A stretch of DNA of 64,000 nucleotides from Actinomycetota bacterium (lineage in GTDB: Bacteria; Actinomycetota; Nitriliruptoria; Euzebyales; JAHELV01), in contig JAHWKT010000001.1 of the NCBI GenBank assembly GCA_019347695.1, positions 24,230-88,229 of the forward strand, in the 5' to 3' direction. Of this stretch, positions 24,495-43,243 are shown piece by piece; the stretch's first letter is position 1, and every line of letters begins with the position of its first letter. Both the position numbers and the translations under genes were made by a program. The notes below the pieces were generated by a model. It saw only the letters and a list, made by a program, of their open reading frames with translations. It was not told the origin of the DNA and ran no database searches.

Positions 24495-25387
24495 GTGCTC
24501 CTCGTCGTCGTGTCCGTGGCCAGCACGCGTTCCCAGAGCTCGCTGGCGAGTCGATGGTACGCAACCGCTCCGCGTGATCCAGGATCGAAGACCGTGATCG
24601 GTTGGCCATACGACGGCGCCTCGGCGAGGCGTACCGAGCGCGGGATGCGGGTCCGGAACACGAGATCGCCGAAGTGACGTCGGACCTCCTCTGCCACCTC
24701 GTGAGAAAGCTTCGTCCGCCCGTCATACATCGTGAGCGCGAAGCCGGTGATCTTCAGGTCGCGATTGAGTGTCTGTCGGATCAGTTCGGCGTTGCGGGTC
24801 AGTGCACCAAGCCCCTCGAGGGCGAAGTACTCGCATTGGATCGGGACGATCACACCATCCGCGGCTGACATCGCGTTGATCGTCAGCAGGCCAAGGCTCG
24901 GCGGACAGTCGACGATGATGATGTCGAAGTCGTCGCGTACGTCGTCCAGCGCGCGCCGCAGCTGCTGCTCGCGGCTCAGCGCGCTGACCAACTCGATCTC
25001 CGCGCCGGCCAGGTCGATCGACGAGGGCAGCAACCACAGGTTGTCCACATCCGTCTGCTCGACGACCTTCTGCACCGCGGTCCCGGTGCGGAGCACGTCG
25101 TAGATGCTGGGTTGGCCCTCCCGCAGCCGTATCCCGATGCCCGACGTGCAGTTCGCTTGCGGATCACTGTCGACCAGCAGCACCCGGATCGACTGCTGCG
25201 CGAGTGCGGCCGCGACGCTGACGGCAGTCGTTGTCTTCCCGACGCCGCCCTTCTGGTTGGCAACGACAATGACCGAGGCGGGTCCGATCGTGGACCGGTC
25301 GTCATGTTTCACGTGAAACCGTCGGTCCGATCGCCAGTAGCCGTACCAGCGGTCCCGCTCAGGGGGAGTCGTCACGCGTTCCTCCAC
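24491..25387 (-). CDS. parA: Chromosome partitioning ATPase ParA/Soj
   Basis: Deviant Walker A VANQKGGVGKTTT. The start is uncertain: the track start at 25387 overlaps rsmG by 29 nt, and an alternative GTG at 25312 lies inside a parS site. Confidence 0.9.
   Translation of the reverse strand: MEERVTTPPERDRWYGYWRSDRRFHVKHDDRSTIGPASVIVVANQKGGVGKTTTAVSVAAALAQQSIRVLLVDSDPQANCTSGIGIRLREGQPSIYDVLRTGTAVQKVVEQTDVDNLWLLPSSIDLAGAEIELVSALSREQQLRRALDDVRDDFDIIIVDCPPSLGLLTINAMSAADGVIVPIQCEYFALEGLGALTRNAELIRQTLNRDLKITGFALTMYDGRTKLSHEVAEEVRRHFGDLVFRTRIPRSVRLAEAPSYGQPITVFDPGSRGAVAYHRLASELWERVLATDTTTRST
25305..25320. other. parS centromere-like site
   Basis: TGTTTCACGTGAAACC, 15/16 match to the established parS consensus TGTTTCACGTGAAACA. 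Confidence 0.8.
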
Positions 25388-29159: not shown

Positions 29160-29260
29160 GAGTCCACAGCTGTGGATATGTATGTGGACAACCCGCCTGG
29201 TTGTCCATAGCGATCGCAGGATCGCCACAGACAACTAGGGAGGATCGTGCCTGTGGAAAC
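29160..29260. promoter_or_regulatory. DnaA boxes in the dnaA upstream region (autoregulation / left part of the origin)
   Basis: GAGTCCACA (29160), TGTGGATAT (29171), TGTGGACAA (29183, perfect actinobacterial TTGTCCACA), TTGTCCATA (29201) and TGTGGAAAC (29252). Confidence 0.6.
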
Positions 29261-30635: not shown

Positions 30636-30979
30636 GTCGGTTTCCAGATGCGGACCCTGTGGACCACCTGTGCATCACACGTGGGACGACATGTGGAAAA
30701 CTGGGAGTTGTCCACCGCGGAGATGAACCACATGGGTGTCATGGGGACAACGTCAACGTTGTCCACGACTCGTCAACAGGAAGTCCACGTGCCGTGCACA
30801 GGCCGCGGTGCCGGTCTGACCTGCGATGACGACGTGCTATCCACAGGATCGCGGTTTCCCTACTACTACGACAGATCTGCAATAGGAGACACGGTCTTCA
30901 GTCGGGCAGCCCGGGTGCTGTGCACAACCGGCTCCGCCGGACACCGAACGAAGTTCCCATACCCCGCACGGAGGACGAC
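30636..30979. other. oriC (dnaA-dnaN spacer) with at least 8 DnaA-box-like 9-mers and an AT-richer stretch
   Basis: TGTGGACCA 30658, TGTGGAAAA 30692, TTGTCCACC 30708, TGGGGACAA 30742, TTGTCCACG 30759, AAGTCCACG 30781, CTATCCACA 30838, TGTGCACAA 30920. The AT-richer stretch is TACTACTACGACAGATCTGCAATAGGAGA, near 30861-30889. Confidence 0.75.
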
Positions 30980-41029: not shown

Positions 41030-41710
41030 TCAGGTTCCGGTGACCGACATGCGATCGCGTCGGGTCCACACGAACTTGATGACCGCGCCGACCAGTAGCA
41101 CGATGACGATCAGGTTGAGCCAGTCGGAGTAGCTGCCGATCGACCGCCACTGGCTGCCCAGCACGTACCCGCCGATGACCAGGAGGGTGTTCCACAGCGC
41201 GCTGCCGACGGCGGTCAGCGCGATGAACGGTCCCAGTGGCATCTCCTGGAATCCCGCCGGCAAGGAGATCAGGCTGCGAACGCCGGGGATCAGGCGGCCG
41301 ATGAAGACCGACGAGCGGTCGTGGCGGTCGAACCAGTCCTGCGCACGGTCGAGGTCACTTGCCTCCATGAGGGGCAGCGACGTCAGCAGCGAACGCACCC
41401 GCTCGACGCCCCAGGCGCGAGCGAGCCAGTAGAGCACCAGGGCGCCGAGCGTTGATCCGATGGTCGCCGCGATCACCGCACCCACCAGGCTCAGGCGGCC
41501 GCGTCCCGCGAGGAACCCGGCCATCGGCAGGACCAGCTCGCTGGGGATCGGCGGGAAGAAGACCTCGGCCAGCGTCATCAGCCCCACACCGACCGACCCC
41601 AGTGCGCCGATGACGTCGGCGACCCACCCGATCAGCCCCGTCAGGTCGTCCGTCCCGCCACGGTTGGCCGCCAGGATCGACACGGGTACAACGCTGGAGG
41701 TCACAGGCAT
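41030..41710 (-). CDS. dedA: DedA/SNARE-associated family membrane protein
   Basis: FFPPIPSELVLPMAGFLAG...FIGRLIPGVRSLISLPAG. Confidence 0.85.
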   Translation of the reverse strand: MPVTSSVVPVSILAANRGGTDDLTGLIGWVADVIGALGSVGVGLMTLAEVFFPPIPSELVLPMAGFLAGRGRLSLVGAVIAATIGSTLGALVLYWLARAWGVERVRSLLTSLPLMEASDLDRAQDWFDRHDRSSVFIGRLIPGVRSLISLPAGFQEMPLGPFIALTAVGSALWNTLLVIGGYVLGSQWRSIGSYSDWLNLIVIVLLVGAVIKFVWTRRDRMSVTGT

Positions 41711-41796
41711 CCGCGCCGATGTACCCGGTCACACCCCACAGACACGCCAACGGTCACGGTACTGTTGCAGCGACGACCTGCGACGAGGGAGGAAGC

Positions 41797-42141
41797 GTGG
41801 CACGCCGGCGCGTGTTCTGGCTGGTCGTGCTGGCGGCGGTGCTGTTGGTCGCGCTCACCGACGTCCCCGCCGCCTATGTGTTCGCGCCACTGCTCGGCGT
41901 GGCGATCCTGTGGTTCGGTGTCGGATCGCTGCTGTCGCTGCAGCAGGGTGCGGCACACATCCCGGACGGCGACCCGTCACCGGTGGATCCTACCGCGGAG
42001 CGCACCATGTACTGGTGTGCCGGATGCGGTGCGGAGCTGCTGCTGCTCGTTCGCGGGACGGCGACACCGCCGCGGCACTGTGGAGAACGGATGCGTGAGC
42101 GCGTGGAGATCCTCCGGGAACGCCTGAGCGACGACCGATGA
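41797..42141 (+). CDS. Hypothetical two-TM protein with a C-terminal CxxC...HC zinc-ribbon-like tail
   Basis: The GTG at 41797 is preceded by GGGAGGA. VARRRVFWLVVLAAVLLVAL...YWCAGCGAELLLLVRGTATPPRHCGERM. Confidence 0.4.
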   Translation: MARRRVFWLVVLAAVLLVALTDVPAAYVFAPLLGVAILWFGVGSLLSLQQGAAHIPDGDPSPVDPTAERTMYWCAGCGAELLLLVRGTATPPRHCGERMRERVEILRERLSDDR

Positions 42142-42142
42142 G

Positions 42143-42260
42143 TGGTCCACACCTGTGGATAACCATGTGGATACCCCGATTTTCGGGGTTATCCCCACCT
42201 GTGGATGACATTGGGGAAATCTCATCTGTGGGAGTCCGCGAAGCACACGGATGTGGACGC
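42143..42260. other. DnaA-box cluster (5 strong and 2 weak boxes) plus a terminator-like hairpin in the convergent spacer beside crgA
   Basis: TGGTCCACA 42143, TGTGGATAA 42154 (perfect TTATCCACA), TGTGGATAC 42166, TTATCCCCA 42189, TGTGGATGA 42200, TGTGGGAGT 42227, TGTGGACGC 42252. Hairpin CCCCGA-TTT-TCGGGG at 42174-42188. Confidence 0.6.
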
Positions 42261-42261
42261 G

Positions 42262-42489
42262 TCAACGCCAGCGGCTCAGGGCGACCAGTCCGCCGGCCAT
42301 CATGACGAACCCGACGATCAGGTTGATGTTGCCACCCGGCAGCCCGGGGATCAGGTAGATGACGAGCAGCAGCAGCGTCCCGAGGCCGATCAGCGACAGG
42401 CCGAGCATCGGGACCCAGCGTGGGCTGCGTGGCGGCTTCGCGGGCTTGGGCGGGATGTAGGTCGAGCGTTTCGATCTGGACTTCGGCAC
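42262..42489 (-). CDS. crgA: Cell division protein CrgA
   Basis: MPKSRSKRSTYIPPKP...two TM helices...ALSRWR. Synteny with Rv0011c. Confidence 0.85.
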   Translation of the reverse strand: MPKSRSKRSTYIPPKPAKPPRSPRWVPMLGLSLIGLGTLLLLVIYLIPGLPGGNINLIVGFVMMAGGLVALSRWR

Positions 42490-42523
42490 GGCTCACTCCG
42501 TAGGTCAACGTACGACAGCTCTC

Positions 42524-43243
42524 ATGGTACGGTCTGCAGGGTTGACCTCGACCAGGACCGCAGCGGCGCGCCCTTGGAGCGCGCGCATCGTCGCCGTGCT
42601 CGGATGGGCACTGCTGATCGCCGGCGCCTGCATCCTGCTCTACCTCGTCTACGCCCTGCTGTTCACCAGCGTCGCGGCCGAACGCGCGCAGGACGAACTG
42701 CGCACGCAGTGGACCGATCGCAGCGCGCCCGAGCCGGTGGTGCCCGCCAGCGAGCCGGCAGCGGACCTGGTCGGCGAGCCCTCCGAGCCAGCGCCGCAAG
42801 AAGACGCGCCCCCCGACAGCGGCGTGGCACTGATCGAGTTCTCGCGACCGGGAGATGCCAGCACCATCGTGCACGACGAACCGTTGGTCGTCCTCGACGA
42901 CGTCTCGGTGGGCGACCTGCAGCAAGGGCCGGGCCACTATCCGGGGACGGCGCTGCCCGGCGAGCCCGGGAACTTCGCCGTCGCCGGTCACCGCACCACC
43001 TACGGGGCGCCGTTCTTTCACCTCGACGCGCTGCGTCGTGGCGACCGCGTCCTGGTGACCGATCGTCGGGGCCGTCGTCACACCTATGAAGTGGCCGAGC
43101 AGCGGGTGGTGCTGCCCAGCGACACCTGGGTGATCGGCGACGATCCGCTCAGATCCGGCCGACCGACGCTCACCCTCACGACCTGCAACCCCCGGTTTTC
43201 GGCCGCCGAACGACTGGTGGTCCACGCCGAACTGCAGTCCTGA
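42524..43243 (+). CDS. Class E sortase
   Basis: N-terminal TM helix, GHYPGTALPGEPGNFAVAGHR, LTLTTCNP (TLxTC catalytic Cys). Confidence 0.85.
   Translation: MVRSAGLTSTRTAAARPWSARIVAVLGWALLIAGACILLYLVYALLFTSVAAERAQDELRTQWTDRSAPEPVVPASEPAADLVGEPSEPAPQEDAPPDSGVALIEFSRPGDASTIVHDEPLVVLDDVSVGDLQQGPGHYPGTALPGEPGNFAVAGHRTTYGAPFFHLDALRRGDRVLVTDRRGRRHTYEVAEQRVVLPSDTWVIGDDPLRSGRPTLTLTTCNPRFSAAERLVVHAELQS

Follow-up and report, generated by a model that had tools for sequence, protein, structure and literature searches.

Two genes converge on a spacer of 120 bp (positions 42142-42261) in the 64-kb stretch of actinobacterial DNA analyzed here (hereafter the window). The spacer extends from one stop codon to the other and directly abuts that of crgA (Table 1). 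The gene on its other side encodes a membrane protein of 114 residues for which no Pfam family was matched, and the stop codon of this gene lies 1 bp ahead of the first of two DnaA-box modules; orthologues are also present at four related loci (L001-L004) and at many loci from metagenome-assembled genomes. Judged by its CrgA homologues, the window belongs to a Euzebyales-like actinobacterium in the class Nitriliruptoria, a lineage that branches deeply within the phylum. The GC content of the spacer is 55.8%, compared with 69.7% for the whole window, and falls in the lowest 0.3% of all 120-bp segments. The distance to oriC, measured from the dnaA-dnaN spacer, is ~11.2 kb, and the cumulative GC skew has its minimum, and turns, near 31 kb.

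The locally higher AT content, the distance of some 11 kb from the origin and the fact that both flanking genes end at the spacer, which makes promoter autoregulation a less than obvious explanation, had all been pointed out in an earlier note on this DNA, and each of these observations holds. With regard to the last, stop codons lie at both edges, and a consensus scan of positions 41600-42700 for promoters and terminators returned no promoter-like or terminator-like site; neither an internal promoter of the sigma-70 type nor a canonical terminator is therefore supported. An Rfam scan of the whole window gave three tRNAs as the only hits at threshold, none of them near the spacer, and no match within it. 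An open reading frame for 55 aa (42138-42305) lies in the spacer and overlaps crgA on the opposite strand.

Two three-box modules at the 3' end of crgA

With a box defined as any 9-mer within one mismatch of TTATCCACA or TTGTCCACA (TT[A/G]TCCACA), and with both strands counted, the crgA spacer harbors five boxes inside 66 bp. These belong to two modules of the same architecture, in which a box on the plus strand is followed after 2 bp by a box on the minus strand, and this after another 3 bp by a second minus-strand box; each module thus consists of an inverted pair plus a tandem box. The two modules are direct copies of each other, in the same orientation and offset by 46 bp. The boxes listed in the earlier note, including the perfect TTATCCACA, are all found where it had placed them, but its list was incomplete, as it lacked the third box of module 2 (TGGGGAAAT). 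Two further, weaker words lie closer to crgA: a fourth box that is partly conserved (as CCCAC or TCCAC) in the closest relatives only, and a 9-mer adjoining the crgA stop codon that is not conserved in three relatives (L001, L004 and L008) and is probably not part of the element.

A third copy of the three-box module is located 56 bp ahead of the dnaA start codon, and its identical architecture links the module in the crgA spacer to DnaA. The spacer also compares well with the origin itself: one perfect box and four one-mismatch boxes lie within 66 bp, whereas oriC has seven one-mismatch boxes in 270 bp and no perfect one.

Table 1 Coordinates of the genes, DnaA boxes and box modules in the window
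Feature	Position	Strand	Remarks
dnaA-upstream module (third copy)	29160-29191		GAGTCCACA gc TGTGGATAT gta TGTGGACAA
dnaA	29247-30635		Pfam Bac_DnaA and Bac_DnaA_C
oriC (dnaA-dnaN spacer)	30636-30919		seven boxes (<=1 mismatch) in tandem arrays; reference for box usage in this genome
Convergent membrane protein gene	41797-42141	+	114 aa; ends in TGA; CxxC...HC motif
Module 1	42143-42174		TGGTCCACA (+) cc TGTGGATAA (-) cca TGTGGATAC (-); beside the stop codon of the convergent gene
Box TGGTCCACA	42143-42151	+	module 1
Box TGTGGATAA	42154-42162	-	module 1, middle box; perfect TTATCCACA on the minus strand
Box TGTGGATAC	42166-42174	-	module 1
Extended palindrome	42169-42194		contains the hairpin as its core
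Hairpin ACCCCGA-ttt-TCGGGGT	42173-42189		GC-rich
Module 2	42189-42220		TTATCCCCA (+) cc TGTGGATGA (-) cat TGGGGAAAT (-); crgA side
Box TTATCCCCA	42189-42197	+	module 2
Box TGTGGATGA	42200-42208	-	module 2
Box TGGGGAAAT	42212-42220	-	module 2, third box; kept in relatives
Weak fourth box TGTGGGAGT	42227-42235	-	ACTCCCACA on the crgA-sense strand
Weak box-like 9-mer TGTGGACGC	42252-42260	-	adjoins the crgA stop codon
crgA	42262-42489	-	75 aa; Pfam PF06781 (CrgA), E = 5.5e-11; the element is anchored at its 3' end

The GC-rich hairpin between the modules, which the earlier note had described as the terminator-like core of a palindrome, is real (predicted energy of about -19 kcal/mol when folded within 46 nt; z about -2.6), but it lacks a T-tract and has not been kept in relatives, in which the modules are separated by 13 to 133 bp of unalignable sequence; among 16 relatives no consistent fold was found, most of these stretches being no better than shuffled sequence and several lacking any fold. 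The hairpin is thus a local feature of this genome that lies outside the conserved element. An intrinsic (rho-independent) terminator was rejected on the grounds that the T-tract is missing and the hairpin is not kept in relatives, and the palindrome was rejected as a part of the element given that the 16 relatives share no structure.

Box density and conservation of the module

The window contains 23 boxes with up to one mismatch, compared with 7.9 +/- 3.3 in 100 shuffles of the 64-kb sequence that preserved dinucleotide composition. When the highest count in any 120 bp was scored for each of these shuffles, it was one in 84 of them, two in 15 and three in a single case, so that the five boxes of the crgA spacer were never reached. 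Fifteen of the 23 boxes fall into three clusters, namely the dnaA-dnaN spacer (seven boxes, 30658-30927), the region upstream of dnaA (three, 29171-29209) and the crgA spacer (five), and the other eight are scattered. Closely spaced pairs, whether tandem, head-to-head or tail-to-tail, are confined to the same three places within the 64 kb, those of oriC being tandem arrays only. For the inverted pair TCCMCA-NN-TGKGGA, 0.29 occurrences would be expected in the window; there are three, one of them upstream of dnaA and the other two in the crgA spacer. The box cluster in the crgA spacer is therefore real, and within the 64-kb window it exceeds chance.

Related loci were retrieved by exact-protein look-up, from species-representative genomes (13 loci) and from metagenomes (38 loci), the last two sets being entirely of the Nitriliruptoria type. 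A strict inverted pair, defined as two boxes with at most one mismatch each and a spacer of 2 bp, was sought within 250 bp after the crgA stop codon, and is present in 37 of 44 distinct loci. Across these loci, 41 strict pairs lie in the 11 kb that follow crgA, compared with a single one in the other 137 kb. Box density, as judged within the 64 kb, and conservation in related genomes, two of the points that the earlier note had named for checking, both speak for the cluster. Four of the seven exceptions have a looser pair (L012, L020 and L048, 3-bp spacer; L043, a two-mismatch box), and the remaining three have no pair in the 250 bp that were searched.

In the relatives L001-L004 and L008, the five boxes are found in unchanged order and orientation within the corresponding convergent spacer. 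The crgA-proximal module is the more widespread of the two. In about 40 loci, anchored on the inverted pair, it reads nnnTCCNCA-3-TTNTCCNCA-2-TGGGGAnAA on the crgA-sense strand, with nearly invariant cores and variable flanks. The distal module is restricted to a subclade of 16 loci, in all of which its middle box is a perfect TTATCCACA.

The gene beyond crgA is far less constant: it may be the convergent gene for the 114-residue protein, a Zn-ribbon gene, a rhomboid gene (Streptomyces) or Rv0010c (mycobacteria). In four loci (L010, L012, L015 and L020), a co-directional gene for an FmdB-type Zn-ribbon protein begins 5-25 bp beyond the boxes, and in two others (L007 and L013) the Zn-ribbon gene abuts crgA and the boxes are absent. 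The boxes stay linked to the crgA 3' end, whichever gene lies downstream. They are also absent within 260 bp in two distant loci (L059 and L060), in which a csoR-like gene follows crgA. An inverted pair occurs 381 bp downstream in L060.

Counterparts in other actinobacteria and similarity to known DnaA-binding loci

Database records of crgA loci from Streptomyces and mycobacteria were compared next. Both Streptomyces genomes have a rhomboid gene convergent with crgA, and a three-box module follows crgA in this convergent spacer as it does in the window, with the same order relative to crgA, (+)(+)(-). In one of these loci (L025, with a CrgA labeled S. venezuelae by NCBI), the module TTATCCACA-gcg-CTATCCACA-cc-TGAGGAAAA begins 51 bp after the crgA stop codon, and an additional TGTGGATAA lies about 20 bp beyond it; the other (L024) has TTATCCACA-gccg-TTTTCCACA-g-TGGGGAAAA. 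In three mycobacterial genomes, TCATCCCCA-c-TGTTGATAG-cgtc-TGTGGATAA is found 89-120 bp after the crgA stop codon, preceded by a weak palindrome, AATCACA-cgca-TGTGATT. This makes a five-box cluster of mixed orientation that includes one perfect box, the three principal boxes being ordered (+)(-)(-) with spacers of 1 and 4 bp.

The mycobacterial site is an established target of DnaA. In Mycobacterium tuberculosis, the spacer between Rv0010c and Rv0011c (crgA) was among the five top DnaA sites identified in vitro by IDAP-seq, and binding of DnaA to a fragment of this spacer was confirmed by EMSA (Hicks et al. 2020, PMC7738170). The center of the peak is a cluster of DnaA-box-like words, two of which form a small palindrome, and ChIP-seq in M. 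smegmatis showed DnaA to occupy the homologous regions (PMC7738170). Clinical SNPs have arisen repeatedly in the palindrome, and engineered versions of them gave longer cells and increased isoniazid tolerance to the same extent as dnaA variants did (PMC7738170). The earlier note had known of no such element beside crgA in actinobacteria; the study by Hicks et al. corrects it on this point. In an incomplete search of the literature, we found no report that the crgA-adjacent site is conserved outside mycobacteria.

The cluster in the window shares with the mycobacterial site its position directly 3' of crgA and close to the origin (11.2 kb here, about 12 kb there), the presence of 9-mers in both orientations that include one perfect TTATCCACA and an oppositely oriented pair, and the fact that regulation of the flanking genes does not account for it. 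By contrast, the downstream gene is convergent here and co-directional there (Rv0010c), and the arrangement TCATCCCCA-1-TGTTGATAG-4-TGTGGATAA is replaced here by two (+)(+)(-) modules with spacers of 3 and 2 bp. Beyond the boxes, no alignment to the mycobacterial site is possible. As box order and spacers differ, it is position rather than alignment that points to common descent of the two sites. Binding and phenotypes have been measured at the mycobacterial site, whereas the cluster in the window is known from its sequence.

The locus also belongs with a wider class of origin-proximal box clusters. Within the window, near-consensus boxes outside oriC reach a density beyond chance, as they do in titrating clusters. 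Deletion of the DnaA-box clusters of Bacillus subtilis leads to early initiation, and DnaA binds to them stably (PMC3245932). These clusters are likewise intergenic and mostly close to the origin (PMC3245932, PMC2533591), but they occur in another phylum beside other genes, and some of them regulate their neighbors. An actinobacterial example is the D78 cluster of Streptomyces coelicolor, an origin-proximal group of DnaA boxes that restrains initiation (Smulczyk-Krawczyszyn et al. 2006, cited in PMC3479198 and PMC3245932). D78, H69 and H24 are reported to be high-affinity box clusters outside but near oriC in an actinobacterium, and to restrain initiation. D78 may be distinct from the crgA-adjacent locus. 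Going by cosmid names, H69 could possibly be the crgA-adjacent cluster itself.

The E. coli loci offer parallels of a different kind. In vivo, the unit to which DnaA binds stably in this organism is the 'double DnaA box', two boxes in tandem 2-3 bp apart (PMC11317965). In most such units a consensus box follows a weaker one, a form that is present in the window as GTATCCACA-tgg-TTATCCACA, but the modules described here add a third, inverted box at a distance of 2 bp. The datA locus, another box cluster outside oriC, which lowers initiation potential, also contains a double box, its two tandem boxes being 3 bp apart; datA acts by IHF-dependent hydrolysis of ATP bound to DnaA and lies about 470 kb from oriC. 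The core of the DARS loci has three boxes, of which box I is oriented against the other two, II and III (PMC5742627), and both modules in the window likewise have one box opposed to two tandem boxes. In MG1655, DARS1 reads TTATCCACT-attcc-TGTGGATAA-cca-TGTGTATTA (L026, 608-642). Its spacer between boxes II and III has the same length of 3 bp as in the modules, and in module 1 even the same sequence, 'cca', within an 18-nt identity (CCTGTGGATAACCATGTG); the spacer between boxes I and II is 5 bp in DARS1 and 2 bp here. DARS activity also requires ADP-DnaA and, for DARS2, IHF and Fis, whereas for the module the likeness is one of sequence.

Candidate roles of the cluster

The conservation of the boxes in about 40 loci, with variable sequence between them, together with the published binding in mycobacteria (PMC7738170), supports a reading in which the cluster would act on DnaA rather than serve as a promoter operator, in agreement with the proposal of the earlier note that a box cluster outside oriC acts on DnaA. 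In the organism from which the window derives, DnaA very likely binds the crgA spacer. The spacer as a whole is probably a conserved high-affinity DnaA-binding locus outside oriC, the counterpart of the mycobacterial site, and its most likely role is that of a sink or regulator of DnaA. In such a sink, each unit would offer two tandem boxes separated by 3 bp and a third box inverted 2 bp away, and the two units would leave room for six or more DnaA molecules binding cooperatively; the target would be DnaA itself, not the flanking genes. Given the tandem double boxes, the perfect box and a box density higher than that of oriC, the locus would be expected to fill before the origin does. After only ~11 kb of fork travel the spacer would be copied, doubling its dosage soon after initiation, which follows the logic of an initiator sink and makes titration the most likely mode of action. 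By holding DnaA away from the lower-affinity boxes of the origin, the locus may time initiation to growth and division. Titration as the mechanism on its own, a claim based on position and predicted affinity, is nevertheless put forward tentatively, as something slightly short of an even call.

For this genome, the cluster is the sort of regulatory feature to be expected near the origin and not a new type of element; its kind has already been described, as the crgA-adjacent DnaA site of mycobacteria within the wider class of origin-proximal DnaA-box clusters. New here are the three-box module and its copy upstream of dnaA, and the occurrence of the module after crgA in Nitriliruptoria, in Streptomyces and, in altered form, in Mycobacterium. 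This matters for the M. tuberculosis site, for which the mechanism is open (titration and nucleotide exchange are the candidates considered by Hicks et al. 2020) and where mutations are clinically selected and raise isoniazid tolerance (PMC7738170); a module shared across lineages provides a comparative definition of the bases that matter.

The main rival to the sink is a DARS-like site, at which ADP-DnaA would assemble on the module, head-to-head contacts would promote the release of ADP and ATP-DnaA would be regenerated, so that DnaA would be promoted instead of absorbed. Titration and reactivation both appear compatible with the sequence. The topology of the core speaks for reactivation, as do the 'cca' spacer and the 18-nt identity shared with DARS1. 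However, actinobacteria are not known to have the framework of Hda/RIDA, IHF and Fis in which DARS operates. In addition, most of the 18 identical nucleotides belong to two consensus boxes, the difference of 2 versus 5 bp in the spacer of the inverted pair shifts the helical phase by ~100 degrees, and the presence of the module upstream of dnaA means that it may simply be the general high-affinity unit of this lineage. The phenotypes reported for M. tuberculosis bear on the same question. The longer cells of dnaA variants were likened by the authors to those of hypomorphic alleles, site mutants phenocopy these variants, and the rate of initiation in site mutants is apparently unchanged (PMC7738170). 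Hypomorph-like behavior is what loss of an activating site predicts, and the mutants are not obviously what loss of a pure sink would produce; they fit better with a positive, DARS-like role, or with mutations that strengthen binding. Longer cells at an unchanged rate of initiation also leave room for the coupling to division that the earlier note had suggested. On balance, we consider a DARS-like function of the window's cluster unlikely, and slightly more doubtful still is the broader proposition that the cluster after crgA is an ancient, phylum-wide locus of the Actinomycetota for reactivating or remodeling DnaA instead of a passive sink, retained at the crgA 3' end because it couples initiation to division. 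If that proposition were true, actinobacteria would have a DARS-like system of their own that works without Hda, SeqA, IHF and Fis, and it would explain the mechanism of the isoniazid-tolerance mutations in the M. tuberculosis site.

Weaker than the DARS-like rival is a role in transcription, in which DnaA at the crgA 3' end would halt converging transcripts as a roadblock or in place of a terminator, or the boxes would be the operator of a downstream or antisense promoter, and expression of crgA or its neighbor would be tied to the level of DnaA. All lineages keep the link to the crgA 3' end, and many relatives lack a hairpin between the converging genes, so that other means of termination could be needed; moreover, mycobacteria and the loci L010, L012, L015 and L020 have a gene co-directional with crgA that starts 5-65 bp beyond the boxes, which are thus placed like an operator. 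In the window and in Streptomyces, however, the spacer is where both neighboring genes stop, the scan around the window's spacer returned no promoter-like site, the boxes remain in clades without the Zn-ribbon gene, and dnaA mutants of M. tuberculosis express Rv0010c and Rv0011c at unchanged levels (PMC7738170). Such a role thus appears improbable, if less so than the binding of some other protein to TCCACA-like inverted repeats, for example MtrA or a dimeric regulator, which is very unlikely. The core TTNTCCNCA-NN-TGNGGANAA is indeed a 20-bp palindrome of the type bound by dimeric regulators, and MtrA binds near DnaA sites in the mycobacterial oriC (PMC6265350). MtrA itself was rejected as the binder: its motif, a direct repeat of GTnAC-type half-sites (PMC6265350), does not match the boxes. 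More generally, the 9-mers fit the universal DnaA consensus, in one case without a mismatch, identical words occur in oriC and upstream of dnaA, and it is DnaA that binds the mycobacterial counterpart (PMC7738170). An ordinary bidirectional terminator, with box-like words that arose by chance or from base composition, would account for a GC-rich hairpin in a 3'-3' spacer that is AT-richer than its surroundings; it is the least credible of these explanations, as the hairpin has no T-tract and is unconserved while the boxes are kept in about 40 loci, at a density that no shuffle reached.

Box modules near dnaA and at oriC

Outside the crgA spacer, the only inverted pair of DnaA boxes in the 64 kb, that is, two oppositely oriented boxes, belongs to a three-box module upstream of dnaA (see table). 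This module is presumably the site of dnaA autoregulation. No inverted pair occurs among the boxes of oriC, which lies near the minimum of the cumulative GC-skew; these boxes are instead laid out as tandem arrays with spacers of 2–3 bp. A perfect TTGTCCACA box stands isolated and without a partner ~4 kb upstream of dnaA (window 25041-25049).

Box-bearing and neighboring features of the window and of related crgA loci (L-numbers)
Feature	Location	Context	Boxes
Three-box module	window 29160-29191	56 bp 5' of the dnaA GTG	GAGTCCACA gc TGTGGATAT gta TGTGGACAA; architecture as in the crgA spacer
oriC	window 30636-30919	dnaA-dnaN spacer	seven with <=1 mismatch, none perfect
Zn_ribbon_8 gene regions	L010 about 1130-1160; L012; L015; L020; L007/L013 3233-3484		

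Module 1 of the crgA spacer and the core of E. coli MG1655 DARS1 share an 18-nt identity, CCTGTGGATAACCATGTG (window 42152-42169; ~620-637 in comparison record L026), most of which consists of two consensus boxes, the 3-bp spacer 'cca' also being common to both.

Genes beside crgA

The convergent gene (window 41797-42141) is kept beside crgA across the class. Its product of 114 aa, for which no Pfam family was found, carries a CxxC...HC motif and is predicted to contain membrane segments. Within this gene, the box-like TGTGGAGAA (minus strand, TTCTCCACA; window 42079-42087) falls within the codons of a conserved HCGERM motif and is found at the same position in relatives; its recurrence there apparently reflects coding rather than a binding site.

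Several Egibacteraceae- and Euzebyaceae-type loci carry an FmdB-type Zn_ribbon_8 gene (MPxYEYRC...), absent from the window, between crgA and the convergent gene. Where boxes are present, this gene starts 5–25 bp past them; in L007/L013, it directly adjoins crgA and there are no boxes.

Probably misbinned and distant crgA loci

One contig (L010, JBBDXN010000039.1) is titled as a Candidatus Rokuibacteriota MAG, yet its crgA locus is actinobacterial and has the box module too; the contig is probably misbinned.

In two distant crgA loci (L059 and L060; 42% identity), the gene following crgA, 0–400 bp past its stop, looks by eye like a CsoR-type repressor, and the palindrome ATACCCCCCATGGGTAT precedes this putative CsoR-type gene. 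On the far side of the same gene, 381 bp past the crgA stop, L060 contains the inverted pair TTATCGACA-gg-TGTGGACAA.
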